Below, piece by piece: positions 1,397 through 18,826 of a stretch of DNA of 30,145 nucleotides (the first letter of the stretch is position 1; each line of letters starts with the position of its first letter). The notes beneath the pieces were generated by a model. The model had not been told where the DNA came from and did not search any database. It saw only the letters and a list, made by a program, of their open reading frames with translations. Made by a program: the position numbers and the translations under genes. Origin of the DNA: a bacterium (GTDB lineage: Bacteria > UBA6262 > WVXT01); assembly GCA_046759165.1 (NCBI GenBank), contig JBHIBS010000020.1, positions 1-30,145 of the forward strand. Direction: 5' to 3'.

Positions 1397-2203
1397 TTAC
1401 AATTTAACAATACACTTAGTCGGACATTTCTCCAGAGGTTTCTTCCAGTCGGTGTCCTCTTTTATTTTCCCGATGTCCACCCGGGCCAGGTTATCTTCCA
1501 CTTTAAAAAGTTCCGGACAGCTCTTCTCACATAGATTGCAAGCAATGCAGCCCACCGGGCAGATGCTTCTAACTACCTTTCCCTTGTCCAGGGAACTGCA
1601 GACTACGGCGATCAAGGGGCGAACTCCATCCCATATCTCCAGAGAGATTATCCTCCGGGGACAGGCCTTAACACAATTCCCACAACCGGTGCACTTCTCC
1701 CGGTCTATTCGAGGGAGTCCATCTTCCATAACGATGGCCTCGAAGGGGCAGACCTGAGCGCAATCCCCATATCCGAGACAGCCATAAACACAGGATAGTT
1801 CTCCTCCCGCTACCAGGATACTTGCCCGGCAGCTTCTCAGCCCTCGATAGTCCGCCCGGTGCTTTTTCTCCTCGGATTTAGCCCCGCAGTGAACGACGGC
1901 CATTTTCCTCTCCACTACCTGACTTTCTACCCCCAATACGGAAGCTAACTGCTCAGCTACATTCGCCCCTCCAGTCACACAATCGTTTACGGTTACTTCC
2001 TTGACTAAAAGTTTCTCGGCGAACAACCGGCAACTGGCCGAGCCACAGACTCCACAGTTGACTCCAGGAAGAATGGCATCTATCCTCTCCACTCTGGGGT
2101 CTTCCTTGACGAAAAACTTCTTACTGGCTATGGCCAGGACCAGGGCAAAGAAGGTTCCTAAGCCTGCCACGCTCAATATCGCTACTAAAGTCGTAGTATC
2201 CAT
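1397..2203 (-). CDS. rnfB: Rnf complex subunit B (polyferredoxin)
   Basis: N-terminal TM helix, LPGVNCGVCGSASC, several CxxCxxCxxxCP motifs; last gene of the rnf operon. Confidence 0.95.
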   Translation of the reverse strand: MDTTTLVAILSVAGLGTFFALVLAIASKKFFVKEDPRVERIDAILPGVNCGVCGSASCRLFAEKLLVKEVTVNDCVTGGANVAEQLASVLGVESQVVERKMAVVHCGAKSEEKKHRADYRGLRSCRASILVAGGELSCVYGCLGYGDCAQVCPFEAIVMEDGLPRIDREKCTGCGNCVKACPRRIISLEIWDGVRPLIAVVCSSLDKGKVVRSICPVGCIACNLCEKSCPELFKVEDNLARVDIGKIKEDTDWKKPLEKCPTKCIVKL

Positions 2204-2330: not shown

Positions 2331-2912
2331 TTAAGCTGAGGGTAGTCCGGCAAAACCCATAAAGGCTAAAGCCATTAGTCCAGCGGTAAGTAGCGTGATC
2401 GCCGCTCCCTGAAGGGCTTCCGGCACATCGGCAAACTCCAGCTCCTTCCGGATGCCGGCCATAATGACAATAGCCAGGGTAAATCCCACTCCCGAGCCAA
2501 AACCAAAAAGGATACTCTGGATAAAATTATACTCCCGCAAAACCAGAAACAGGGCACTGAAAAGAATAGCGCAATTAGTAGTTATGAGAGGAAGATAAAT
2601 ACCCAGAGTGCGATAGAGGCCTTGGCTAGTCTTTCTGATAAACATCTCCACTAACTGAACCAGAGAGGCGATGACCATGATGTCGGTAACATACTCCAGA
2701 AAACGCAGGTCGAACTTGATGAGGATAAAAGTATTGATCAGCCAGACCACAGGAGCAGTTAGAGTCATCACAAAGGTCACGGCCATACCCATGCTCAAAC
2801 TGGCCTTCACCTGGGTGGATACCCCGATGAAAGGGCATATCCCCAAAAAATATTTCAGCACAAAGTTGTTTACTACCACAGCACTGAAAATGATTAAAAG
2901 AAGCTCGCTCAT
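2331..2912 (-). CDS. rnfA: Rnf complex subunit A
   Basis: NNFVLKYFLGICPFIG and LGIYLPLITTNCAI motifs. Confidence 0.95.
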   Translation of the reverse strand: MSELLLIIFSAVVVNNFVLKYFLGICPFIGVSTQVKASLSMGMAVTFVMTLTAPVVWLINTFILIKFDLRFLEYVTDIMVIASLVQLVEMFIRKTSQGLYRTLGIYLPLITTNCAILFSALFLVLREYNFIQSILFGFGSGVGFTLAIVIMAGIRKELEFADVPEALQGAAITLLTAGLMALAFMGFAGLPSA

Positions 2913-2924
2913 TCCCTCTCCTTT

Positions 2925-3560
2925 TTAATGGCATACCGGTCTTTTATTTGCCTTACCCGTAAAGACATTGCTGATACCGATCAGCGTTCCCAGAGTGAGG
3001 AAGGCTCCCGCCGGCAGGAGCATGATTATCCACGGACGAAACCCCCCTCCTTTGCCCACGAGGGCTAAAATCTGAAATCCGAATATCGTCCCCGAACCCA
3101 GAAGCTCTCGGATGCTGGCTAAAACGATGAGAGCCAAAGTGAAGCCCACCCCCATACCCAAGGCATCAGCCACGGCCCGATGGACAGGATTCTTGGAAGC
3201 AAAAGTCTCCTGACGACCCAAGATTAAGCAGTTAACGACAATCAAGGGAATATAGGGACCCAGAGCCTTGCTGATGTCCGGAAAGTTCCCTTTAAGAAAG
3301 AGATCTACTACCGTTACAAAGGTAGCAATAATAACTACAAAAGAGGCAATCCTCACCTGATGAGGAAATACCCTCCTGAAAAGGGAGATGATGGCACTGG
3401 AGCAAAGGAGAACGAAAGATGTAGCCAAGCCCATACTTAATCCAAAGATAGCCGCATTGGTTACCGCCAGGGTAGGACACATACCCAACAACTGCCGAAA
3501 AACAGGGTTCTCCTTCCACAATCCCTTAAGAGCATCTTTGAATAAAACATACTGTTTCAT
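2925..3560 (-). CDS. rnfE: Rnf complex subunit E
   Basis: ENPVFRQLLGMCPTLAVT and IPLIVVNCLILGR motifs. Confidence 0.95.
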   Translation of the reverse strand: MKQYVLFKDALKGLWKENPVFRQLLGMCPTLAVTNAAIFGLSMGLATSFVLLCSSAIISLFRRVFPHQVRIASFVVIIATFVTVVDLFLKGNFPDISKALGPYIPLIVVNCLILGRQETFASKNPVHRAVADALGMGVGFTLALIVLASIRELLGSGTIFGFQILALVGKGGGFRPWIIMLLPAGAFLTLGTLIGISNVFTGKANKRPVCH

Positions 3561-6503: not shown

Positions 6504-7119
6504 TTATCCTCTAAAGTTAGCCCTCGCTTCGCTCGCAATTGCTTTTGCTCCGCGAATAGATCTGGCTGTCTCCTCGATATCCTCCTCATTTAGAAAGGCA
6601 GGCATCACCGTGGTTTTAAATTCATAATCAACTTTGCTTCTCATGAGAATATCAACCTTCTCTTTTACTCTCTCCAGATTAACCTTCGTTTCCACCAATG
6701 TGTCCTTTCATATTTATTACTTTCATCTTTATTCTTAATATCCATAATTACAGAATCAAGCAACTCCTCCTCTATCAGCTCTCTGGACATCTCCGGGTGA
6801 CTGCCGTTAGTCTCTATCTTCACCGGCATATTCCCCCCTTTCATCTCCCCGATGAACTCGGGAAAAGAGATATGAATGGTCGGTTCTCTTCTGGAAATGA
6901 CTACTCCATCCAACCAGCTCTTCTGTCTGTGTATGCCCCCCTCAACCTGCCAAAAGGACCCCTTATCCAAATTCTCTGGGTGGTCTCTGGGTGAAAGGCA
7001 AAATCAGGAACATAACACTATGGACATCTAAAGTTACAGGGAGGCGAAAAAATGACGGAAGCTCTCCTCCCGTCTCATTCTATGAGAGAGTTCTCCAAGA
7101 AACCTTCCATCTCCGACAC
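6504..7119 (-). pseudogene. nrdG: Decayed radical SAM anaerobic ribonucleotide reductase activase (NrdG-type)
   Basis: Three frame pieces: MEGFLENSLIE*DGRRASVIFSPPCNFRCP*CY (CxxxCxxC with two nonsense codons), WLDGVVISRREPT...VKIETNGSHPE...MDIK, and VDYEFKTTVMP. The 3' end is truncated near a gcgagcgaagcgag repeat-like motif. Confidence 0.8.
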
Positions 7120-7554: not shown

Positions 7555-7791
7555 TTAATGGCACTTGGGCGGCTTGCCATGAAACTCTTTATCGCTAGCA
7601 CTAATCATTCTGTCCAGGAATCTTCCCCACCAGCCTTTCTTTTTGAGCCACTTTTCCGGATTCTTAGAAAATTTCTCTCGGCAGCCTGGAGCGCAGAAGT
7701 AGTAAGTTTTGCCATTGTATTCCAGCCTATGCTTTGTTGTTTTTTCGTCTACCATCATCCCGCAAACTAAATCCTTGACCATGTCCCTCAC
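7555..7791 (-). CDS. YHS/TRASH-domain metal-binding protein with amphipathic C-terminal extension
   Basis: KDLVCGMMVD...YNGKTYYFCAPGCREKFSKNPEKW, then WWGRFLDRMISASDKEFHGKPPKCH. Confidence 0.85.
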   Translation of the reverse strand: MRDMVKDLVCGMMVDEKTTKHRLEYNGKTYYFCAPGCREKFSKNPEKWLKKKGWWGRFLDRMISASDKEFHGKPPKCH

Positions 7792-7930
7792 CCCCTTATA
7801 CTGGCTGGGCTCCTTTCGGCTTTAACAAATTTTTCTATATGTTTCTACCTTTAAAACAATCGGGGAATGAAAGGAGATACTCAGCACTGCTTGAACTTCT
7901 CCACCATCTTCTCTTAAGTTTTCCCGGTAC

Positions 7931-8674
7931 TTATTCTAATGGGTAACCTAAAGGCATTATAAAAAGTGGACGTCTATCTTCAGAGATGCCTAATACTTCT
8001 TGAACCGCTTCATCCATAAAAGCGCCTACACTTACTGTTCCTAATCCCAAAGACTCTCCCTGAAGATAAATATTTTCCGCTACCGCTCCTGCCTCCATAA
8101 TGGCATATTTGGGGCCTCTTTGTCCATATTTTGCCATTGTTCTCTCATACACCGCAGTAATTACTATATCACAGGAAGCCTCTTTAATCCACCGCTGGTC
8201 AAGTGCTGCTTTTGCCAGTGCGGAAAGTAAATTGCCATCTTTGACCTTTTCCAACCCATGCTCTTGTGGGAGGTAATGGTAAACTCCTTTAGGTAAGACA
8301 ATGTAAATCTCTATAGGATACAAAGCGCCTGCAGAAGGAGCAGCTCTGAGTTTATAGCCATCAATCTGGCCAGTTATTCCCTGGGCTGCCCAGAGGACCT
8401 GAGAAAGTTGTCCTAATGTGATAGGTTTTTGTTTATAAAGCCGGCGGGAACGCCGATGCAATATTGCTTCTTCTATAGAAACACCACTTTGGGACCGAGG
8501 TTCTGGAAGAATGACATAATTTTGTCCTATTTGGTCTACCGATATCTTAGGTTCTAACCGAACTCTCTTTTTAAAAATCCCACCATAGACAAATAAGCTC
8601 AATAATATCCCGGAGCTAATAATGGAAACGAAGACAAAATTTCTCTTAAGCATTTTGTTTTTATTTCTCCACAT
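7931..8674 (-). CDS. SagB/ThcOx-family (nitroreductase-fold) FMN-dependent dehydrogenase with N-terminal membrane anchor
   Basis: SIEEAILHRRSRR, LSQVLWAAQGIT, RAAPSAGALYPIEIY, EAGAVAENIYLQ; hydrophobic N-terminal segment FVFVSIISSGILLSLFVYG. Confidence 0.88.
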   Translation of the reverse strand: MWRNKNKMLKRNFVFVSIISSGILLSLFVYGGIFKKRVRLEPKISVDQIGQNYVILPEPRSQSGVSIEEAILHRRSRRLYKQKPITLGQLSQVLWAAQGITGQIDGYKLRAAPSAGALYPIEIYIVLPKGVYHYLPQEHGLEKVKDGNLLSALAKAALDQRWIKEASCDIVITAVYERTMAKYGQRGPKYAIMEAGAVAENIYLQGESLGLGTVSVGAFMDEAVQEVLGISEDRRPLFIMPLGYPLE

Positions 8675-8703
8675 TTTTCATCACCTTTAGGTATTTTAAG
8701 AAT

Positions 8704-9744
8704 TTATTTAAGTTTCTTTATGATTTTATCTTTAGTCATATTCTGGAGAAGCCAGGTCTTAATAAGCGTTTTTTCCCCGGAGAGCAAAGGACAGTGTTCT
8801 TCCTTACAATCTCTTAATAGCTTTCTACAAGAACAAACTTTACATTCAACATTATTTAAGATAGCCCGGGGCAAAGGAGTTTCCATCACATAGCAACTCT
8901 TACAGCAAAAAGCTCGTTTTTTACCATCTAACTTTCCATAGTAAGCCTTATCCAGGATAGGTCTACTGCAAATATAGCAATTCTTCCCTAAGTATTTTCC
9001 CCCCATCTTTTTTGCACATATTTTAGAACAAGGAGCATACATGGCAGAAACCGCATCCTCAGGGCTGAGTTTCATTTTATATAGATATATCTTAGCTGTA
9101 GAAATCATTGACCCAATCCTCTTACACCAGGGCATCTTTTCTATACAGGTGCGGATAGATTCAGTACATTCACAACCGCAAGTACCGTTATCTAAAACAA
9201 AATCTGGAATATCAGAAGTATCATAACTTCGCATCTGGTGAGCCATCTTAATAGCAGATTCAATTATTAAACTATACCTTTGTTGATATTTATTGCTTTT
9301 AAGCAGTTTAACTATTTTACCATCAGATTCACCTTGTTCCTTTAACTTTCTTATATCCTTGGCAATTGTCTCTTTAATTGGACAATCATTTTCTCCAGCC
9401 AAACATACCCAGACCTTCTCATTACAGGCACAGGGACAATTCAGATTACGAATGACTTCGGCTGGCAACTGGTGAATGAAGGCTATATTATTCCTATTAA
9501 AGTTATAAACTATCGCGCCCTTATCAAAATCTTTCTTAAACAGAAACCTTGCCCTGGCTCTTAAATCCTTGGCTATGGGGCAATCTGGCGAATGGTCTAT
9601 GGTCTTTCTTCCACTACAGCCAATGCAAAGAATTTTGGAGTAAATCTCATCTAATTCTTTCTCACTCTTTGATTCAGATGCATAAACTCCAGTCCAGAGT
9701 AATAAAACATTTAATATAACCAAAACTAAAATTCTTTTTTTCAT
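8704..9744 (-). CDS. Predicted secreted Cys-rich protein: four CcmH-like repeats plus a TRASH/YHS-like domain
   Basis: Likely start ATG 9744 (MKKRILVLVILNVLLLWTGVYA, signal-peptide-like; GAGG upstream). Repeats LCIGC..DCPIAKDLR, NCPCAC..C..DCP, TCGCEC..C..WC, ECKVCSC..DC..HCP; TRASH-like CYICSRPI...GKKRAFCCKSC. Confidence 0.75.
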   Translation of the reverse strand: MKKRILVLVILNVLLLWTGVYASESKSEKELDEIYSKILCIGCSGRKTIDHSPDCPIAKDLRARARFLFKKDFDKGAIVYNFNRNNIAFIHQLPAEVIRNLNCPCACNEKVWVCLAGENDCPIKETIAKDIRKLKEQGESDGKIVKLLKSNKYQQRYSLIIESAIKMAHQMRSYDTSDIPDFVLDNGTCGCECTESIRTCIEKMPWCKRIGSMISTAKIYLYKMKLSPEDAVSAMYAPCSKICAKKMGGKYLGKNCYICSRPILDKAYYGKLDGKKRAFCCKSCYVMETPLPRAILNNVECKVCSCRKLLRDCKEEHCPLLSGEKTLIKTWLLQNMTKDKIIKKLK

Positions 9745-9873
9745 CCGAACCTCTTCTTCAAATAAGCTACCATTAACAAGAAACAACTTATTCTGTCAAT
9801 AGCCTGACCAATTTCTAAAAGCAGGGGATAGATATTTTTCTCTTTATCTTTAGCTCAACACTTTATTTTTTAA

Positions 9874-9966
9874 CTATTCCTTGGGCAGTTTTAGGTCATG
9901 CCCAGGACCAAAGCAGTGTCCTTCACCACAATGGGCAACTCTGGGAATCATAAATCTTACTCTCAT
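9874..9966 (-). CDS. Unannotated 30-aa His/Cys peptide MRVRFMIPRVAHCGEGHCFGPGHDLKLPKE
   Basis: Strong SD AAAGGAGGTGA just upstream of the ATG. The 16-mer agcgaaaggaggtgaa (9973-9988) is identical to the one in front of the YHS gene (11841-11856). Too short for the ORF track. Confidence 0.7.
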   Translation of the reverse strand: MRVRFMIPRVAHCGEGHCFGPGHDLKLPKE

Positions 9967-9998
9967 ACCCGATTCACCTCCTTTCGCTTCGCTTCAGT

Positions 9999-10053
9999 TT
10001 CCGATTCATTCATCGGAATTCCTCCTTATTTGTCCCGATTTATTCATCGGGAC
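9999..10053. repeat. Two related short palindromes (REP-like)
   Basis: ttccgat-tcattc-atcggaa and gtcccgat-ttattc-atcgggac, each followed closely by cctcctt on the + strand. Confidence 0.6.
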
Positions 10054-10227
10054 CCTCCTTCAATGAGCGCACAACTACACACCTAGTTTTCTGGGTGTGT
10101 GGGTTATCTGCACGAATTGAACCCTGCACCATCTTTTTAGTTTTTTATAACAACATAAAGATTTTTTCATATTTTCTTACCTATAACCTCATCACAGTGG
10201 CAATAAACAGGGTAGTGCTCTATGAGC

Positions 10228-10258: not shown

Positions 10259-11461
10259 TTAAAATATAGGCACTGGTATATTACCCCAGAGATGTTCTGG
10301 TTTACTCTTCATTAAGAAGACCACCTTTTCACTGGCAGGGTCTATATCTACAAAGAATATAGGCTCACGCCGTACATGCAAACTCATTGCCTCACTTATA
10401 TCTACTCTTTTTCCACCAGGACCAAGTGCTCGAGTAAAAATTAGACGCCAGGTAGTATCTAAGTCCAAATTATTTAACTGGCGCATAGGTTCAAGTGCAA
10501 GCATATCCCAGAGATGTCGCACCATAAAACCTATACCTCTACTGGATACCTTGCCGTGATGTTGTTCATGTTCCATAGCAGATGAAGTTAACAGTCCCTG
10601 CATTATATAATCGGAAGGCATTAAATAGGCAACTACTGCACCTTTTTCTATTTCATTTTCTAACTGCCCTTTAACTCTATCATCCTTAATAGAAATATCT
10701 AAAAGTTTACCAATTACCTCTTCCGTCCTGGGTGCTAAAGATATAACCTGTATATCTTTCCTTTCTAAAGTAGCAATTTGAGACTTGGAAAATTCCCTTA
10801 ATCCAAGTGCTAAAACAACAGCAATAGTTAAACTAACAACATAAAGTAAGGTAAAACTAAAACCTCTTCGGCTCTTATTAAAAGGTAATATGGCATAAAT
10901 TTTTCCTCCTATATTTCCCGGAAGAAACATATTGGGGACAAGTTGAATATATTGTGTGTAGCTTTTAGGATAAGCCTTTTTCATTCTTCTTTCTTCATCG
11001 CGGGCTAAAAAATAATATACAAAAAGCATACTTATAAATAGAATTAAAATAATAAATCGTGGCCAGAAGAGTAAAAGCCCAAGTCCTGATATACTCAAAG
11101 ATAAATATTGGGGATGTCGAATAAACCTGTAAAGCCCTCCTGTAACCACCCCACTACGGAAAAGTTTTGCCCCATATACCTGTAGCGCACAGACTAAAAA
11201 TGAAAAGAGGCCTAAAATAAAAAGAAATGGTCCTAAGGCAGAAAGAAATATCAGAAAACCATTACCAGCTACTGCTAAGTGGGGAAAGAAGAAACCTGTC
11301 AGCCAGGCAGTAGCTTGATGCCGGTAAAGAAAATTTAAAATCGGCGCGTATATCGAATAGAAGTATACAGCAAATGGGGTAATCATTATAATCACTTCTA
11401 AGGCAATTATCCCATAAAATAATAAAGCCGCCCAACTGCCGAATCTTTTAAAATTAGTCAT
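10259..11461 (-). CDS. Ste14/PEMT-like (isoprenylcysteine carboxyl methyltransferase family) membrane protein with C-terminal soluble domain
   Basis: VVTGGLYRFIRHPQYL and ARDEERRM...Y..Y motifs; multiple TM helices; His/Met patch MEHEQHHGK in the C-terminal extension. Confidence 0.8.
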   Translation of the reverse strand: MTNFKRFGSWAALLFYGIIALEVIIMITPFAVYFYSIYAPILNFLYRHQATAWLTGFFFPHLAVAGNGFLIFLSALGPFLFILGLFSFLVCALQVYGAKLFRSGVVTGGLYRFIRHPQYLSLSISGLGLLLFWPRFIILILFISMLFVYYFLARDEERRMKKAYPKSYTQYIQLVPNMFLPGNIGGKIYAILPFNKSRRGFSFTLLYVVSLTIAVVLALGLREFSKSQIATLERKDIQVISLAPRTEEVIGKLLDISIKDDRVKGQLENEIEKGAVVAYLMPSDYIMQGLLTSSAMEHEQHHGKVSSRGIGFMVRHLWDMLALEPMRQLNNLDLDTTWRLIFTRALGPGGKRVDISEAMSLHVRREPIFFVDIDPASEKVVFLMKSKPEHLWGNIPVPIF

Positions 11462-11643: not shown

Positions 11644-11835
11644 TTAATGGCAGGAACCAGACATCCCTCCTTCTTCTTCCTTGCCCATATATTTCATAGG
11701 TTCTGAATCAAACTTTTCCTTGCAAACTGGGCAACAGAAGTAGAAGGTTTTTCCCATATGTTCTGAAGTTGCGGCTGCTTCATCCTTCTTAACTGTCATT
11801 CCACATACAGGGTCTTTTACTTCATTCTCTTCCAT
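11644..11835 (-). CDS. YHS-domain protein (putative copper chaperone)
   Basis: KDPVCGMTV...GKTFYFCCPVCKEKFDSEPMKY, C-terminal MSGSCH; strong SD. Confidence 0.9.
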   Translation of the reverse strand: MEENEVKDPVCGMTVKKDEAAATSEHMGKTFYFCCPVCKEKFDSEPMKYMGKEEEGGMSGSCH

Positions 11836-11933
11836 CTTTTTTCACCTCCTTTCGCTCGGCAAAAGATAAAGTATTAAAGACTAACCATACTGATAATAGA
11901 ATGAATAAAAATGAGAAAACTCTTCTGATATGT

Positions 11934-12572
11934 TTAAACCTCTATTTCTGCTTTGGGGCGATGCTTGGGAAAGAACATACCAGTCTCTCTTTTATAATTA
12001 AGATATTGCTGACCAAATCTTTTTTCCATTTCTCTCTCCTCAACCTTAGCCAGGTGCCAGTAAGCAAGTAGAAGTATAGGCCACATTAGTATAGTTAGAA
12101 TTGTTGGCCATTGAATAAGCATCCCTGTGGTTATAAGAATTAGCCCTGAATATTGAGGATGACGAATATACTTATATAAACCATCAGTTACCAGTTGGTT
12201 TTCTCTCATTGCCTTATATATCTTTCTCCACCCTACCCCCATAATAACCAAACCTGTAAGCATAAGTAGACTACCTGTCTGACAAATTACTAATCCAGCT
12301 ATATCTCCTAAATTTAAAAGTGACGCCCACAGATGCCCTTTTATATGAAGAAAAGGTATATTAATGCCAAAAACAGAGGATAAGACATATATAGTCAATG
12401 GAAACCCATACATCTCTGCATATAAGTCTACAATAAATGCCTCAAATATACCTAAGTTGCGCCACTCCCTCTTCTTTGTTGGCATAAAGAAACTTATCGC
12501 AAATATGGTGAAAAACAAGACCATGAAAATGGCAACAGCCCACCTACTATATTCATAAACTTCTTTTTGCAT
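11934..12572 (-). CDS. Ste14/PEMT-like methyltransferase-family membrane protein of the type found beside copA
   Basis: AEMYGFPLTIY, GHLW, LVTDGLYKYIRHPQYSG, EEREMEKRFG. Confidence 0.88.
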   Translation of the reverse strand: MQKEVYEYSRWAVAIFMVLFFTIFAISFFMPTKKREWRNLGIFEAFIVDLYAEMYGFPLTIYVLSSVFGINIPFLHIKGHLWASLLNLGDIAGLVICQTGSLLMLTGLVIMGVGWRKIYKAMRENQLVTDGLYKYIRHPQYSGLILITTGMLIQWPTILTILMWPILLLAYWHLAKVEEREMEKRFGQQYLNYKRETGMFFPKHRPKAEIEV

Positions 12573-12622: not shown

Positions 12623-15061
12623 TTAAGCGAGCTTTACTTTCCTTAAGCGATTGGCATTGGTAACCACTGATATGGAGCTAGTAGCCATAGCGATTTCGGC
12701 AATAACCGGATGGAGCAGCCCCAGAATGGCTATGGGTATGACGGAGGTATTGTAGCCGTAGGCCCAGTAGAGGTTCTGTTTAATCTTCCTGAAGGTAGCC
12801 CGGGAGAGTTTGATGGCCTTAACCACTGCTGATAACTCTCCACTTACGAGGGTTATATCCGATGCCTCAATAGCAATATCAGTTCCCGTGCCAATAGCTA
12901 TTCCCACATTAGCCTGGGTTAGAGCAGGGGCATCATTAATGCCATCGCCGACCATAGCAACCATTCCCACCTTCTCCTGAAGATGTTGTATCTCTCTTAC
13001 TTTCTGGTCTGGAAGCACCTCAGCTAAAACCCGACTTATACCAACTTTCTTAGCTACGGCTTTTCCGGTACGTTCATTATCTCCGGTTAATATAGCAGTC
13101 TCTAATCCCATCCTCTCCATCTCAGCAATAGCTGCTATGGAGTCATCCTTCAAGGTATCGGCCACTGCAATAATCCCAGCTATCCGGTTATCCTTAGCCA
13201 CTAACATTGCTGTCTTAGCTTCATCCTCAAGTCGCCTCAGGTCTTCCTCTATTGAGGAAGTCAATTCTACCCCTTCCATTAACTTTCGGCTGCCTACCAG
13301 GACTTCCTCTCCATTAAGTTTAGCCTTCACTCCTTTCCCGGTTACAGCCGCAAAATCTTGTGGAGGAATAAGATTTGTTCCCTTCTCCTGAGCCCTCCTT
13401 ACTATCGCCTGACCCAGAGGATGTTCCGAGCCCGATTCTACACTGGCAGCTAAACGGAGAACCTCATCCTCCTCAAATCCATCCATAGTTACAATGTCAG
13501 TCACCTCTGGTTTTCCCTTGGTAATGGTTCCAGTCTTATCAAAGACAATGGTATGGACATCCTTGAGAGTCTGAATAGCTGCACCTTCCCTGAAGAAGAT
13601 GCCATTTTCTGCTCCCATCCCGCTTCCCACCATAAGGGCAGTGGGAGTTGCCAGTCCCAAGGCACAGGGACAAGCAATAACCAGCACTGCCACAGCAGCA
13701 AATACAGCCAGGGAGACAACACCAAGGTTGGGATTAACCCAGGGGATAAACCTATCAGCCCAGGAAAGAATTCCAGCAAAGAATCCGGGAAAGAATAACC
13801 AGGCTAAAAAGGTCGATATGGCTATACCAATAACTGAAGGGACAAAATAACTGGTAACCTTATCGGCAAATTCTTGAATGGGAACTTTGGAACCCTGGCA
13901 TTCCTCTACCATCTTGATGACCTGGGAAAGAAAAGTATCTTTACCTATCTTGGTCGCCTTTATTTTTAACAATCCCTGCTGATTTATGGTTGCTCCGATT
14001 ACTTCATCACCTGGCTTTTTATTTACTGGCATCGATTCCCCTGTAGCCATAGATTCATCAATATAGCTTTCACCTTCCACAATCTCTCCATCAGTGGCAA
14101 TCTTCTCTCCCGGCCGAACTACCATAATATCATTTACTTTTACATCTTCTATGGACACCTCTTTTTCCTGACCATCAACCAGGACACGAGCAGTCTTTGC
14201 TCCTAACTCTAGCAATTTCTTTATTGCCTGGGAAGCACGGCCCTTAGCCTTTGCCTCTACATATCTGCCGGTCAGGTGGAAGGACATAATCATTGCTGCC
14301 ACTCCCGCATAGTTGGCAATAGGGGCAAAAAGGGCTGCAAAACCAGTAACATATGATGCCGAGGTGCCCATCCCAATAAGCACATTCATATTGGCAGTTA
14401 TGTGTTTAACTGCCTTCCACGCTGACTTAAATGTGGACATCCCCATTATAAACAAGACCGGCGTGGCTAAGATAATCATTCCCAGGTCATAAATCAACTT
14501 GTTTGGCCAAGGATGCCCCGTAATCATCTCCGGTATCATCCATGCTATAATCGGTACGGTAAATGCCCATGCCCAGAACATCCTCCCTTTGGCCTGGCGC
14601 ATCATCCGCTCTTCTTCCTCTTCTTCAACCGCCTCCTGTTCTAAAACCTGATAGCCAGTAGACTTAATTACCTGTTTAATTTCTTCAGGTTTAACCTGAG
14701 CTGAAGTATAAGATACAGTAGCCTTCTCGGCAGCAAAGTTTACATTGGCGTCAATGACACCCTTTGTCTTCTTCAAAGCCCTTTCAATAGTCTGAGCACA
14801 AGAGACACAACTCATCCCTCCTATTTTAAACACAATTTTCTCTTCTTCCCTTACTACTCCATAACCCGAATCTTCTACAGTCTTAATCAACTCGTTTTCT
14901 TTAATTTCTTCAGGTGTATAATGGATAATAGCTTTCTCTGTGGCAAAACTTACACTTGCTTTATTTACTCCTGATTTTTTATCTAAAGCATTCTCAATTG
15001 TTTGTGCGCAGGAGACACAACTCATTCCTTTTATCTTAAAGATTACTTTTTTGTCTGTCAT
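12623..15061 (-). CDS. copA: Cu(I)-translocating P1B-1 ATPase
   Basis: Two GMSCVSC metal-binding domains, [34 protein letters not shown] and MxxSS transmembrane ligands. Confidence 0.96.
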
Positions 15062-15099: not shown

Positions 15100-15384
15100 C
15101 TAATATTTCCTGAACTTTCTCAGGACTTCTATAATTTCCTCTATCTTCTTTTCTCTTTCTTCACGGTTTCCTTTTTTTAATGACCCATGGACACAGCTTC
15201 GTAAGTGTCGGTTCAAGATATTATTCTCCACCTCCATAATGGCTCCTACTGCCGAGGAAATCTGGGTAAGGATATCTATGCAGTATCTTTTGTTTGTAAT
15301 CATCTTCTGGATTCCCCGAATCTGACCTTCAATTCTTCTTAGCCTATTTAACTCCTCAATATGTGATGACCATTGAGCATTCAT
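15100..15384 (-). CDS. csoR: CsoR-family copper-sensing repressor
   Basis: RLRRIEGQIRGIQKM, YCIDILTQI, HLRSC (C-H-C fingerprint). Start moved to ATG 15384 (MNAQW) because the longer ORF runs through the promoter. Confidence 0.93.
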   Translation of the reverse strand: MNAQWSSHIEELNRLRRIEGQIRGIQKMITNKRYCIDILTQISSAVGAIMEVENNILNRHLRSCVHGSLKKGNREEREKKIEEIIEVLRKFRKY

Positions 15385-15423
15385 TCTTACACCCCCTTTG
15401 GACAAATGATTAACCCCTAAATA

Positions 15424-15453
15424 ATTATACCATACCCCCCTATGGTATGTCAA
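15424..15453 (-). promoter_or_regulatory. sigma70 promoter with embedded CsoR operator
   Basis: TTGACA-18 nt-TATAAT with extended -10 TG; spacer carries ATACC-ATAGGGG-GGTAT, the inverted repeat plus G-tract typical of CsoR operators. Confidence 0.9.
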
Positions 15454-15492
15454 GTAAAAAATAAAAAAAGTTTCTACCCTCTCCAATAAACA

Positions 15493-15644
15493 GTTTCCAA
15501 CCAATAGGCTGGAGTCCTTGCGAAAGCAAGGTTATTCCTCCCTTTCGAGAGGACTCCAGAGCATAAACCCACCTCCCTGGTCGAGTACCATTTATGGTGC
15601 CGTCTTCCGTCACCCTAAAGGGCAACCGACCGATGTCTGGAAAC
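15493..15644. other. Highly structured non-coding element (two three-way junctions inside terminal inverted repeats)
   Basis: Ends gtttcca/tggaaac; domain A 15509-15559 and domain B 15579-15631 each have a closing stem plus two tetraloop hairpins. Confidence 0.6.
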
Positions 15645-15646
15645 AA

Positions 15647-16579
15647 CTATTTTTCCTGAAAAAGGGGTGTACTCAGGTAGCGCTCGCCTAGATCTGGCAA
15701 GATGACCACAATCAGCTTGTCCCTGTTCTCCCGGCGTTTAGCCACTTCCATGGCTGCGTAAGCTGCTGCTCCTGAGGAAATCCCGCAGAAGATGCCTTCT
15801 TCTTGAGCCAATCTCTGCGAAGTTACCATTGCCTGTTCATCGGTTACTTTAAAAACTTCGTCAATAATGTTCTGGTTTAGAACTTCGGGAATGAAGCCAG
15901 CTCCAATTCCCTGAATCTTATGAGGACCAGGCTTACCTCCAGAAAGCACAGGGGAACTTGCAGGCTCAACAGCAATTGCCTTAAATGAAGGCTTCCTCTT
16001 TTTTATAACTTCCGCCACACCGGTAATTGTCCCTCCTGTACCTACTCCGGAAACCAAAATATCGGCTTTTCCATCCGTATCCTTCCATATTTCTTCAGCA
16101 GTAGTCTTCCTGTGAATTTCAGGATTGGCGGGATTTTTAAACTGTTGAGGCATAAAAGAATTTGGAGTCTTCTCCACTAACTCTTCTGCTCTCTTAACTG
16201 CTCCTTTCATTCCTTCACTGCCTGGAGTTAAAACTAATTCGGCTGCAAAAGCTTTCAGGAGAGCTCGCCTCTCCAGACTCATTGTATCCGGCATAGTAAG
16301 TACCAGTTTATAACCTCTGGTTGCACATACAAAGGCTAAGGCAATGCCTGTGTTTCCGCTCGTAGGTTCAATGATAATGGCTTTTCCCCTTTCTATTTTT
16401 CCTTGTTTCTCTGCTGCATCGAGCATCGCTACACCGATTCTGTCCTTTACGTTCCACAGAGGATTAAAAGATTCCAGTTTAGCTACCACTGTCGCACCTA
16501 ACCCCTTGGTGACTCTATTCAATTTCACCAAGGGGGTGTTGCCAATCGTCTTAGTGATGTCCTCATAAATCTTTCCCAT
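15647..16579 (-). CDS. cysK: Cysteine synthase A (O-acetylserine sulfhydrylase)
   Basis: [25 protein letters not shown] (PLP Lys), [31 protein letters not shown]. Likely start ATG 16579 (MGKIYEDI). Confidence 0.95.
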
Positions 16580-16641
16580 TTGCAATTTCCCTTCTTTATT
16601 ATATATATCCCGCTTCAAGTATCTCTCAAAACATTTTATGC

Positions 16642-17790
16642 CTACACAACAATTTGTGTTAAACTATTTATAGCAAAATCTATCTCTTCCCTGGTATTAA
16701 AATATCCCAGGCTGAACCTAATTGTTCCTTCAGGAAAGGTTCCCAATTTTTTATGGGTATAGGGAGCGCAGTGTAGGCCTGTGCGACAGGCAATGCCAAA
16801 GGACTCATCCATGATTGCCCCCACCTCGGCAGGACTTAACTCCCCTATGTTAAAAGAAACAGTGCCTATTCTTTTTTCTCCATCCTGAGAACCATAAATT
16901 TTTACTTTTCTCATCCCGGATAACTTTTCTAAGAGATACTTCGTGAGTTCCATTTCATGCTGTCTAATTTTCTCTATTCCCTCTTTCTGAATAAATGTTA
17001 TGCCCTCTCCTAAGCCAGCAACCCCCACAGTATTAGTTGTCCCTCCTTCCAGTTTAAAGGGTAACTCTTCTGGCTGTAACTCAGATTCAGAATCTACACC
17101 ACTCCCACCTTCCCGCCAGGGTTCCAAATCTACTCTCGGTCCCACATATAAGCCGCCTGTTCCGGGAGGACCAAGTAGAGCCTTATGGCCAGGAAAAGCC
17201 AAAAGGTCTATGTTATCCCTCTCCACATCAATGGGAATAACTCCCGCAGTCTGTGCTGCATCAACCATAAAAATGGTGTCCCTTTTTTTAGAAATCTTTC
17301 CAATTTCTCCAATAGGCTGTAGACTACCAATTACATTGGAACCATGGACAACCACAACCAGCCTCGTTTGGGGAGTAAAGGCTTTACTGAGTTCCTCTAA
17401 ATCTATAAATCCATCCTCATTATGACTAACTCTGGTTACAGTGATTATCTCTTTTTTAACTAAACCTTCTAAGGGTCTGGAGACAGAATTGTGCTCCAGG
17501 TAAGTAGTAATCACATGGTCTCCCTTTTTCAATAACCCTTTGATTCCTATATTTAGCGAATCAGTACAATTGAGGGTGAAGATAATTCTGTGATGGTCCT
17601 TTATACCAAAAAATCGAGCTGTCTGGTAGCGAGTCTCCTCAATTATTCTTTCAGCACCCACTGCCATGCGATGTCCAGCCCGACCAGGATTGGCTCCCCA
17701 TCTACGTATGAACTCATCCATCTTCTTATACACACTTACTGGTTTTGGCCAGGAAGTAGCTGCATTATCAAAGTATATTATTTTTTTCAT
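16642..17790 (-). CDS. Cysteine desulfurase family protein (aminotransferase class V, SufS/Csd-like)
   Basis: [36 protein letters not shown] (PLP Lys), RTGLHCAP (group II catalytic Cys). Confidence 0.92.
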
Positions 17791-17791
17791 T

Positions 17792-18826
17792 TTATGTTCC
17801 TATATATTTTGCGTATAATCCTCTTGCCACAGAGAAATCATTGGTACCTTTTATTATCGCCCGACTATCAAGAAAAAGGTTAATCTCATATTCATTGACG
17901 GAAAACTTCAAAATATACTTATTGAAAGTAACCTTCCCCGATTTCTTCAATCTCTCTGCGAGTTTCTCAAAATCGATCCGACCAATAGATTTCTGGGTTA
18001 TCTGTACTGCATCTCTTCCACAAAGGGAAGTTATTGATGAGCCTTGTTTACCTTCTAAGAATTCAAACTTTCTCTGTTTACAGCAGGAACAGTCAATTTC
18101 ATCCTTTCTATCATTGAGGTTAAACTTCTCAAAAGAGCCTTCCCAGATATCAATTGCAATCAAATTTTTGTTTAATGCTTTAAATTTACCTGTCAGATAT
18201 TTAATTGCCTCTGCTGTCTCAATGGCAGCAATAACATTAACAATCGGACTTATTACTCCTGCTGTGTCACAAGTGGGAACCATTCCCGGCAGAGGAGCAG
18301 TCTCGAAAAGGCAACGGAAACAGGGAGTCTTACCGGGAATAATATTCATAGTCAGCCCATAGGACCCTAAACAGGAACCGTAAATCCAGGGAATTTTTGC
18401 CTTTACACAGGCGTCATTTAACAGAAATCTCACCTCAAAATTATCCGTTCCATCTACCAAAAGTTTAGCGCCTTCAACAAGATTCTCCACATTGGTGAAA
18501 TTAACGTCGGCTACTACAGCTTCCAATTTCACTTCGGAATTAATTTTTTCTAATTTATCCACTGCGGCAATTGCTTTAGGAATATTTCTTTTTACATCTT
18601 CTTCATCAAAAAGAATTTGGCGTTGTAAGTTATTCAGCTCCACAAAGTCCCGATCAATTATTTTCAACTCTCCTATTCCTGCACGCACCAGGTTATTGGC
18701 AATCACTGTTCCTAAAGCGCCACAGCCGACCAGAACAACCTTGTTATCTCTCAGTTTCCTTTGGCCTTGTTCGCCAATCTCAGAAAATAAAATCTGTCTT
18801 GAATAGCGGCTTAAATTTTCCTGCAT
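17792..18826 (-). CDS. MoeB/ThiF-family E1-like adenylyltransferase
   Basis: RYSRQILF, GCGALG, DRDFVELNNLQRQ, DGTDNF, PCFRCL, TCDTAGV, C-terminal LCGRDAVQI domain; no rhodanese domain. Confidence 0.92.
   Translation of the reverse strand: MQENLSRYSRQILFSEIGEQGQRKLRDNKVVLVGCGALGTVIANNLVRAGIGELKIIDRDFVELNNLQRQILFDEEDVKRNIPKAIAAVDKLEKINSEVKLEAVVADVNFTNVENLVEGAKLLVDGTDNFEVRFLLNDACVKAKIPWIYGSCLGSYGLTMNIIPGKTPCFRCLFETAPLPGMVPTCDTAGVISPIVNVIAAIETAEAIKYLTGKFKALNKNLIAIDIWEGSFEKFNLNDRKDEIDCSCCKQRKFEFLEGKQGSSITSLCGRDAVQITQKSIGRIDFEKLAERLKKSGKVTFNKYILKFSVNEYEINLFLDSRAIIKGTNDFSVARGLYAKYIGT

Follow-up and report, generated by a model that had tools for sequence, protein, structure and literature searches.

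A conserved Cys/His micro-ORF coupled to an RNA pseudoknot beside a csoR-copA copper island and in other soft-metal and thiol/redox stress neighbourhoods of bacteria

The stretch of DNA analysed here, referred to as the window, is the forward strand of contig JBHIBS010000020.1 (30,145 nt; assembly GCA_046759165.1), an entire contig of a 1.89-Mb bacterial assembly that is 92.4% complete. Four co-oriented genes lie on the minus strand at the distal end of a csoR-copA copper island, exactly where a sequence-only reading of the window had placed them. The first is a micro open reading frame (micro-ORF) of 30 codons plus a UAG stop (9874-9966), recognised from the ORF list, its conservation and family profile matches, with the product MRVRFMIPRVAHCGEGHCFGPGHDLKLPKE and the core RFMIPRVAHCGEGHC. 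It is followed by a 346-aa protein rich in cysteine, hereafter the multi-Cys protein, which is predicted to be exported from its signal peptide and contains internal repeats (8704-9744 from an ATG, or to 9786 from a TTG), by a SagB-type nitroreductase with an N-terminal signal or anchor (7931-8674; PF00881 109.3 bits, TIGR03605 SagB domain 132.9 bits over a cut-off of 78.4), and by a YHS protein with a C-terminal ...KPPKCH tail (7555-7791; PF04945 58.5 bits). A Shine-Dalgarno (SD) sequence GGAGG is located at 9977-9981, 10 nt before the ATG of the micro-ORF, and an H-type RNA pseudoknot occupies 9882-9908 in its 3' part, as established by pair counts in a 47-sequence alignment. The sequence-only reading had missed that the 3' half of the supposed peptide gene is a conserved RNA pseudoknot and that the element is widespread.

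Judged by its conservation, the 30-aa ORF is a genuine gene, far beyond a chance ORF, as the sequence-only reading had supposed, and it is probably translated in vivo. Two related loci, a metagenome contig (L004) and a contig of a metagenome-assembled genome (L003), were reached via homologues of the multi-Cys protein, and the micro-ORF is kept in both. The gene order of L004 is that of the window (csoR, copA, ICMT, peptide, multi-Cys, nitroreductase, YHS), and that of L003 is the 400-aa ICMT-like gene (ICMT400), a flavin adenine dinucleotide (FAD) oxidoreductase, peptide, lgt, multi-Cys and nitroreductase. Among the micro-ORFs of the window, L004 and L003, five of the nine variable codons changed solely at synonymous third positions, and in two of these codons the base differs between all three copies. 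A second, diverged copy (MRVRFMVPGVGHCAEGHWLGSWVGA) was found in the same genome at 11380-11454 of contig C10 on the minus strand (locus L007, 1489-1563), in which Arg4 is retained via AGA->CGT. On contigs from three other studies the nitroreductase, multi-Cys protein and micro-ORF are present at about 90% identity; there the block 9865-9976 is retained and the flanking spacers 9811-9864 and 9977-10053 are replaced. At the level of the wider family, which extends to other phyla, the mean column entropy over 16 core codons of 40 sequences was 0.58, 0.61 and 1.30 at codon positions 1, 2 and 3, respectively, and single alignment columns show switches between CGN and AGR for Arg and between CTN and TTR for Leu, which together indicate constraint at the protein level. 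An SD of the GGAG/GAGG type precedes the start codon by 5-10 nt in all 15 family members listed. No signal sequence or hydrophobic segment was found in any of the 15 aligned peptides.

The family comprises ORFs of 16-30 aa with the core [FYW]x[ILV](PR/RP)VAHCx[ED]G[CH], which contains a thiol/imidazole motif of the form CxxxC or CxxxH, and the fuller consensus of the family is M-x(1-5)-[KR]-[FYW]-x-[ILV]-(PR/RP)-V-A-H-C-x-[ED]-G-[CH]. CxxxC is carried by 9 of the 15 aligned members and by 30/30 members from one phylum; the lineage of the window has CxxxH, followed by a Cys in two of its four members, and the exact HCGEGHC core of the window was found again in another phylum (L093 and L097). 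A profile built from four sequences matched 38 genomes at E<=0.1 in a domain-wide sample of 401 genomes, including genomes of other phyla, and 11 of the 14 inspected loci from this sample contained the motif, a start codon and an SD; the weak matches in L018, L023 and L024 were without a start or an SD and were rejected as chance. With a 15-sequence profile, 165 cluster representatives were obtained at E<=0.001 among 1.84 billion proteins, of which 60 were examined, and ten database members that were looked up were either unnamed or annotated as 'hypothetical protein'. In one phylum the same profile matched 89 of 301 genomes, mostly with a single copy each and in a family-wise pattern (e.g. 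28/41, 7/7 and 0/66), and in another phylum it matched 10 of 301; a match in L096 was discarded, as it lay inside a 551-aa frame. The peptides matched no profile in Pfam or NCBIfam (0 families), and a tblastn search of plasmids with a 22-aa family member gave no match. Neither the peptide motif nor an upstream ORF (uORF) linked to Rrf2 was described in the literature found by full-text search; supplements might hold small-ORF lists that include it. The micro-ORF family is widespread, patchy in its distribution and so far unannotated.

Past the core, conservation is independent of the reading frame, the same nucleotides being read as SWA*, SWARRETA, VPGxTENCP or GPGxDLKLP in different members. 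The conserved nucleotides are GUCCUGGGCA-N-GAC-NUUAAAC-UGCCC, in which a 3-bp stem (GUC:GAC, S1) is crossed by a 5-6-bp stem (GGGCA:UGCCC, S2) in an H-type pseudoknot. In the window, GUC at 9906-9908 pairs with GAC at 9895-9897 in S1, (U)GGGCA at 9899-9904 pairs with UGCCC(A) at 9882-9887 in S2, and loop 3 is CUAAAAC. Over the 47 sequences, 92.9% of the cells are paired (99.3% in S1 and 89.7% in S2), and there are invariant loop bases. The outer S1 pair is GC in 39, CG in four and AU in three sequences with no single-side change, and GC->AU changes in the long stem occur at two pairs, in seven and three sequences. Double-change cells numbered 22, compared with 6.9+/-2.1 in shuffles, and the covariation score was 0.264, compared with 0.164+/-0.010 in shuffles (0/500 reach it) and at most 0.121 for slid partners; because the sequences are related, these figures are supportive and are not to be read as a probability. 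Of 40 sequences, 32 have their stop codon within the pseudoknot, five have it ahead of this fold and three past it, and the 32 internal stops comprise 13 UGA codons overlapping the short stem, 17 UAA codons of the A-rich loop and two earlier UGA codons in the 5' arm. On this basis the 3' part of the micro-ORF is constrained as a conserved RNA pseudoknot. Two other explanations of the conserved nucleotides were tried and rejected: selenocysteine at the in-loop UGA, where the position is variable (U/A/C/G) and many members read through to a UAA two codons on, and a conserved hairpin inside the ORF (GCCC:GGGC), which by eye is lost where the Ala or Gly codons differ. Rfam 15 gave no match in the window at the gathering score, and at E<=1 in 11 loci nothing fell on the element, the matches being RNase P beside the element of L019 and two chance matches.

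The 30 best loci of the phylum with 89 carriers (L050-L079) were analysed for their neighbouring genes, and the ORF was present in 30/30. An Rrf2 regulator starts 18-196 nt past the stop in 19 of them (15 recognised by Pfam and four by the N-terminus MKLITR..DYA) and is usually followed by genes for hybrid-cluster protein, 4Fe-4S proteins or NifU. By our reading, about 7 of 18 Rrf2 genes lack an SD before their start, a pattern suggestive of coupling to micro-ORF termination. The idea that the micro-ORF is read through in frame into Rrf2 was rejected, as the distance from stop to ATG corresponds to frame 0 in 10, frame 1 in 4 and frame 2 in 4 of 18 loci. Ferritin and a flavodiiron protein are encoded downstream in six of the 30 loci and rubrerythrin in one, and the genes upstream include cysteine desulfurase/IscU, glutaredoxin-Ogg, ArsP, CitMHS/ArsB-type permeases and YHS. 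A TTGACA promoter with the palindrome ATGATAC-N5-7-GTATCAT lies at most 260 nt upstream in 21/30, in a single copy per 3-kb locus; at those loci the micro-ORF would be transcribed first from a regulated promoter. The palindrome, 58-200 nt upstream of the micro-ORF and between the -35 TTGACA and the -10, was seen in Rrf2-linked and ferritin-linked loci alike, and presumably serves as operator for a single regulator, which might be Rrf2 itself.

Beyond this set, the element is found in a variety of metal and redox contexts. In L040, DUF2933, ICMT and NfeD genes precede the micro-ORF and a YHS-HMA-HMA ATPase gene lies beyond it; in L047, the micro-ORF is followed by genes for a MerC-like protein, an extracytoplasmic function (ECF) sigma/anti-sigma pair, HMA-YtkA and ArsP; and in L041, L043 and L091, it is immediately behind ArsR. 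L089 carries a CsoR-family regulator, MerT-HMA, the micro-ORF and a MerA-like pyridine nucleotide-disulfide oxidoreductase, and the downstream genes encode MerT in L095, a cation diffusion facilitator (CDF) transporter in L093, and Rieske and YHS proteins in L097. A Fur-family regulator and rubrerythrin are the neighbours in L042, and L039 contains a ResB/CcsA/TlpA/DsbD cluster followed by an FAD oxidoreductase of the kind that precedes the ORF in L003. The sequence-only reading had called for such a tabulation of the neighbours of peptide homologues, and metal or thiol/redox-stress genes are what it yielded. Its proposed copper link for the peptide stands as far as the copper-island setting of the window is concerned; the metal link of the family is wider than copper, the theme of the neighbourhoods being soft-metal and thiol/redox stress. 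Two side observations were made at these loci: a GrdB-like gene downstream of the micro-ORF (L011/L039, 7139-7936) is split into frames of 169 and 70 aa and may be a selenoprotein gene read through UGA, and the micro-ORF of L019 lies directly downstream of an RNase P RNA gene (1679-2045, minus strand; RF00010, 304 bits).

The micro-ORF with its pseudoknot has the appearance of a stress sensor or helper, rather than of the precursor of a modified natural product. The sequence-only reading had offered either a metal-binding ribosomally synthesized and post-translationally modified peptide (RiPP) or an extracytoplasmic thiol-redox/copper relay, and the relay is plausible in view of the conserved, apparently exported pair of genes. 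That the peptide is a precursor which the SagB-like flavoprotein turns into a copper-binding natural product is, by our estimate, hardly credible. A SagB-type domain is indeed present, the Cys/His-rich peptide is encoded two genes upstream of the enzyme, and the two occur together in the window and L004 and, with a truncated peptide, in L003. As had been noted from the sequence, no YcaO gene was found in the window, and none was found in L003 or L004 or, with PF02624, in the genome of the window at its 92.4% completeness (0 matches; the control was positive in 5/14 genomes); no intact radical S-adenosylmethionine (SAM) gene is in the window either, where just broken NrdG-like pieces occur at 6504-6970. 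The family stands beside unrelated genes in the 89/301 and 10/301 genomes mentioned above, with no nitroreductase among the scanned flanking ORFs; the peptide is conserved throughout, without the variable core expected of a precursor; and the 3' half of the ORF is under RNA constraint. The peptide also has no export signal and the enzyme is apparently exported, in agreement with the earlier remark that the peptide lacks a signal sequence and that both of its neighbours begin with hydrophobic signal-like segments. Because there is no YcaO, the peptide is not tied to a SagB-like gene and the whole peptide is conserved across phyla, the RiPP half of the proposal is unsupported. Co-occurrence of all four genes holds in part: the multi-Cys protein and the nitroreductase are adjacent in all three loci read (window, L004 and L003), the distal YHS gene (7555-7791) is kept in L004 and absent in L003, and the peptide family occurs without a SagB-like gene, among quite different neighbours, in about 100 or more genomes.

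As to how the element would act, we tentatively favour a cis-acting translational gate over a microprotein that acts in trans. The element lies in front of, or within, operons that deal with soft-metal and thiol/redox stress. Translation of the micro-ORF would there open and re-set the pseudoknot, the Cys/His-bearing nascent peptide would modulate both steps, and the downstream genes would be gated by termination-reinitiation or by RNA refolding. The element may thereby respond to metals or thiols. In the window, the gated genes would be the apparently exported pair and the cytoplasmic YHS protein, which may form an extracytoplasmic Cu(I)/thiol-redox unit appended to a presumably CsoR-controlled copA island. 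An extended version of the gate, unlikely as a whole, is a phylum-spanning translational sensor in which the nascent HCxEGC would react with soft metals or with thiol, nitric oxide (NO) or oxidant stress on the ribosome, and in which changed termination or ribosome dwell at the stop would re-set the fold and switch reinitiation or read-through into Rrf2, mer, cop and ferritin-like stress genes. A microprotein acting in trans, as a metal- or thiol-reactive Cys/His mini-chaperone, a buffer, or a partner of Rrf2, ArsR or CsoR, with the pseudoknot tuning only mRNA stability or termination, is possible if somewhat doubtful. It is consistent with the strong protein-level conservation across phyla, the strong SD, the copies at the 3' end of some arsR or iscU-type operons, the second copy in the genome of the window between moeB/tusA-type sulfur-transfer genes and tatC, and the stand-alone copies before terminator-like hairpins and convergent genes (L013, L017, L009, L019 and L027), since such a copy has nothing downstream to regulate. 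However, a peptide of 16-27 aa with two Cys is small for a stable metal site, its C-terminal residues are set by the RNA and vary with the reading frame, and a plain small gene would leave unexplained both the stop within the pseudoknot and the SD-less Rrf2 starts 18-47 nt behind it. That the RNA alone is the functional part, as a riboswitch-like small pseudoknot or a small RNA in which the ORF is incidental, would agree with the covariation, the invariant loop bases and the frame-independent conservation 3' of the core; it is most improbable given the 3-nt periodicity of core conservation, the six-fold-degenerate codon switches that keep the residue and the conserved start codon and SD, and it also has against it the loss by eye of the possible hairpin within the ORF where Ala/Gly codons differ and the absence of an Rfam family match.

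Several observations weigh against a regulated gate of this kind. The multi-Cys gene starts 129 nt after the stop of the micro-ORF and has its own SD, and a fold sequestering the SD before that gene was not significant in the window (minimum free energy z-score -1.13). The stop lies past the pseudoknot in the window and in L004 (both among the 3/40 noted above); the ORF of the window reads through the pseudoknot and ends in ...FGPGHDLKLPKE, because its linker differs by one base. A scan of the window gave no second CsoR-type box close to the micro-ORF, and a profile search gave no micro-ORF element in the remaining 11 genomes of the phylum to which the window belongs. The micro-ORF of L003 is disrupted by two palindromic insertions, which part the core from the pseudoknot and shorten the ORF, and the downstream pair is retained. 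In L013 and L017, the element is followed by a hairpin resembling an intrinsic terminator and then by a convergent gene. The loci analysed were the best-scoring ones and are kin to each other, so that the counts overstate independence. Finally, the role given to the pair in the window relies on domain likenesses under curated cut-offs and on a low-confidence structural model.

The multi-Cys/SagB-type pair itself is rare and lineage-restricted (about 12 sequences). Ten homologues of the multi-Cys protein (59-81% identity) were found among 5.8 billion proteins, plus one fragment among shorter proteins, and none in 60 relatives; all 25 Cys are invariant in the 11 sequences. The protein carries a predicted signal peptide, four repeats with Cys motifs that resemble CcmH, and a TRASH-like Cys4 ribbon. 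In hhalign comparisons the repeats D2-D4, D1-D2, D2-D3, D3-D4 and D1-D4 gave 89.5, 77.9, 61, 58.8 and 24.9%, respectively. The first repeat scored 22.5 bits against CcmH (PF03918), below the cut-off of 25; PF03918 was precomputed for 8/10 homologues, and the profile of the protein matched PDB entry 2kw0 at E 0.017. The ribbon gave weak matches, namely 17.9 bits to PF12156 and local Foldseek matches to eL24/TRASH at E>1. An AlphaFold2 model of the protein was of low confidence (mean pLDDT 62), a Foldseek search of the PDB with it returned nothing at E<=0.001, and the ESM Atlas had no usable match. The genome of the window contains one DsbD/CcdA-like gene and no match to the CcsA/CcmC/CcmF family (PF01578), which makes a role in cytochrome c maturation unlikely.

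The nitroreductase is of a short, stand-alone form (about 200 aa plus the signal or anchor), and short SagB-type nitroreductases number more than 7000 and are mostly stand-alone, as the sequence-only reading had cautioned. Its nine close homologues (64-92% identity) form a group, after which identity drops to about 55%, and five of the nine are on contigs that match those of multi-Cys homologues in size (326424, 26771, 3253, 17846 and 4617). The orthologues have a basic N-terminus and a hydrophobic segment of 18-20 residues, and two more distant relatives (P0180 and P0181, about 50% identical) have RRRF motifs of the twin-arginine translocation (Tat) type, which makes export of the flavoprotein plausible. 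The RRRF-bearing SagB/ThcOx family dehydrogenases were also noted in their own right: part of the group is predicted to be a periplasmic flavoprotein with no known RiPP link. Two further nitroreductase genes, of the five in the genome, also have signal-like N-termini and lie among unrelated neighbours. From these features, the multi-Cys, flavoprotein and YHS genes may take part in extracytoplasmic handling of Cu(I) or thiols.

The remainder of the island lies upstream, on the minus strand. csoR is at 15100-15504 (PF02583 90.8 bits; probable start 15384), and its promoter has a TTGACA -35 and a -10 TATAAT overlapped by TACCATAGGGGGGTATGGTA (15428-15447, minus strand), which we take to be a CsoR-type operator by the consensus of B. 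subtilis copZA; this box is present in a single copy in the window. Family scans placed copA, a P1B-ATPase with two HMA domains, at 12623-15061 and an ICMT-like protein of 212 aa at 11934-12572. These are followed by an upstream YHS protein (11644-11835; PF04945 62.1 bits) and, directly upstream of the micro-ORF, by an ICMT/PEMT-like membrane protein of 400 aa (10259-11461), of which L003 also has one. Both YHS proteins of the window pass the PF04945 cut-off (30.3), and the distal one is borderline to the LDCC mini metal-binding model NF040898 (29.8 bits, cut-off 30). A ThiF-type adenylyltransferase gene, a class-V aminotransferase gene of the cysteine desulfurase type and a pyridoxal phosphate (PLP) cysteine-synthase-type gene are located directly upstream of csoR (15647-18826, minus strand), and the same arrangement precedes csoR in L004. 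The second micro-ORF copy of the genome (L007) is preceded by a thiS-cysteine synthase fusion, a sulfite-reductase-like gene, tusA and moeB/thiF and is followed by tatC and then by a gene for a radical-SAM protein with a twin-arginine signal; both copies therefore adjoin sulfur-transfer genes. The NrdG-like radical-SAM activase of anaerobic ribonucleotide reductase (6504-6970, minus strand) is broken into two ORFs, of 101 and 64 aa, that overlap, and is probably a pseudogene or an assembly frameshift.

Repeats are frequent around these loci. Just upstream of the micro-ORF (9990-10060, minus strand) there are two tandem units, each of a GGAGG and then a perfect hairpin (GTCCCGATGAATAAATCGGGAC, TTCCGATGAATGAATCGGAA); the 16-mer AGCGAAAGGAGGTGAA, which bears the SD of the micro-ORF (9973-9988), has an identical copy before the upstream YHS gene (11841-11856); and the intergenic DNA of L004 is full of similar AGCGAAGCGAAAGGAGG repeats. 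In L003, an insertion of about 150 nt that opens with a perfect hairpin is found at 2840-3040, where a 23-aa ORF remains, loop 3 of the pseudoknot has gained a perfect palindrome of 20 nt, and four tandem 42-nt repeats are present at the contig end (1-130), upstream of the ICMT-like gene. The lineage of the window seems to harbour active small palindromic mobile elements.

If the element does sense soft metals or thiols, it would add a translational layer to the responses to copper, mercury, arsenic, iron-sulfur and NO, which are now credited to CsoR, ArsR, MerR, Fur and Rrf2 proteins alone, would account for an unannotated conserved block in hundreds of genomes, and would be the counterpart, made of peptide and RNA, of a riboswitch that responds to thiol-reactive stress. 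At about 110 nt, the family offers a compact test bed for cross-talk between nascent chains and RNA structure. The 25-Cys protein with CcmH-like repeats and its apparently exported SagB-type flavoprotein constitute a separate and rare puzzle of extracytoplasmic copper/thiol chemistry. To our knowledge, conservation across phyla is very rare among regulatory micro-ORFs of bacteria, and no precedent was found in the literature for a conserved Cys/His peptide coupled to a pseudoknot that holds the stop codon.

Comparison with known systems places the parts of the locus as follows. YHS/TRASH domains and ICMT-like proteins of the CzcN type are known from metal-resistance islands, and YHS genes, ICMT-like genes and a P1B-ATPase occur together likewise in the window and, with the micro-ORF, in the unrelated genome of L040. 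The first repeat of the multi-Cys protein aligns with CcmH/NrfF (PF03918; PDB 2kw0) across the CxxC helix, and the protein is predicted to be exported, as CcmH is; unlike CcmH/NrfF, the multi-Cys protein has four tandem repeats, CxCxC motifs and a TRASH-like ribbon, and its score is below the cut-off. The flavin mononucleotide (FMN) nitroreductase-fold domain of the window exceeds the curated cut-off for the SagB/ThcOx azoline dehydrogenases of thiazole/oxazole-modified microcin (TOMM) pathways, whereas the enzyme is short, stand-alone and provided with a signal or anchor, and has no YcaO partner. TOMM precursors are specific to an enzyme cluster and combine a conserved leader with a variable core, whereas the peptide described here occurs beside unrelated genes and is conserved as a whole. 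TnaC and SpeFL are arrest or leader peptides that sense ligands, and the polycysteine leaderless uORFs of mycobacteria are reportedly short ORFs that control downstream genes. Like leader peptides, the micro-ORF is very short, so that its product is wholly in the ribosomal tunnel at the stop, with the conserved residues away from the C-terminus; unlike them, it has no regulatory codon runs, its stop is usually held in a conserved pseudoknot, and some copies are without a downstream gene. A nearer parallel is CutF of Rhodobacter capsulatus (cutFOG), a small protein with a Cu-binding CxxxC motif encoded just upstream of a metal-homeostasis gene, whose translation controls the downstream gene together with the opening of an mRNA stem-loop (PMC9973294). 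CutF is exported, its mature part comprises 90 aa and its end is proline-rich; many bacteria have CutF-like genes upstream of genes for transition metals (PMC9973294). Compared with CutF as described there, members of the micro-ORF family have 16-30 aa, no Sec signal peptide or PP motif and no likeness in sequence, and in place of a stem-loop that shields the downstream SD, for which the window has no significant fold, there is a pseudoknot at the stop codon. CutF is nevertheless the closest described system, sharing with the micro-ORF family the CxxxC motif, the involvement of RNA structure and the position upstream of metal genes.

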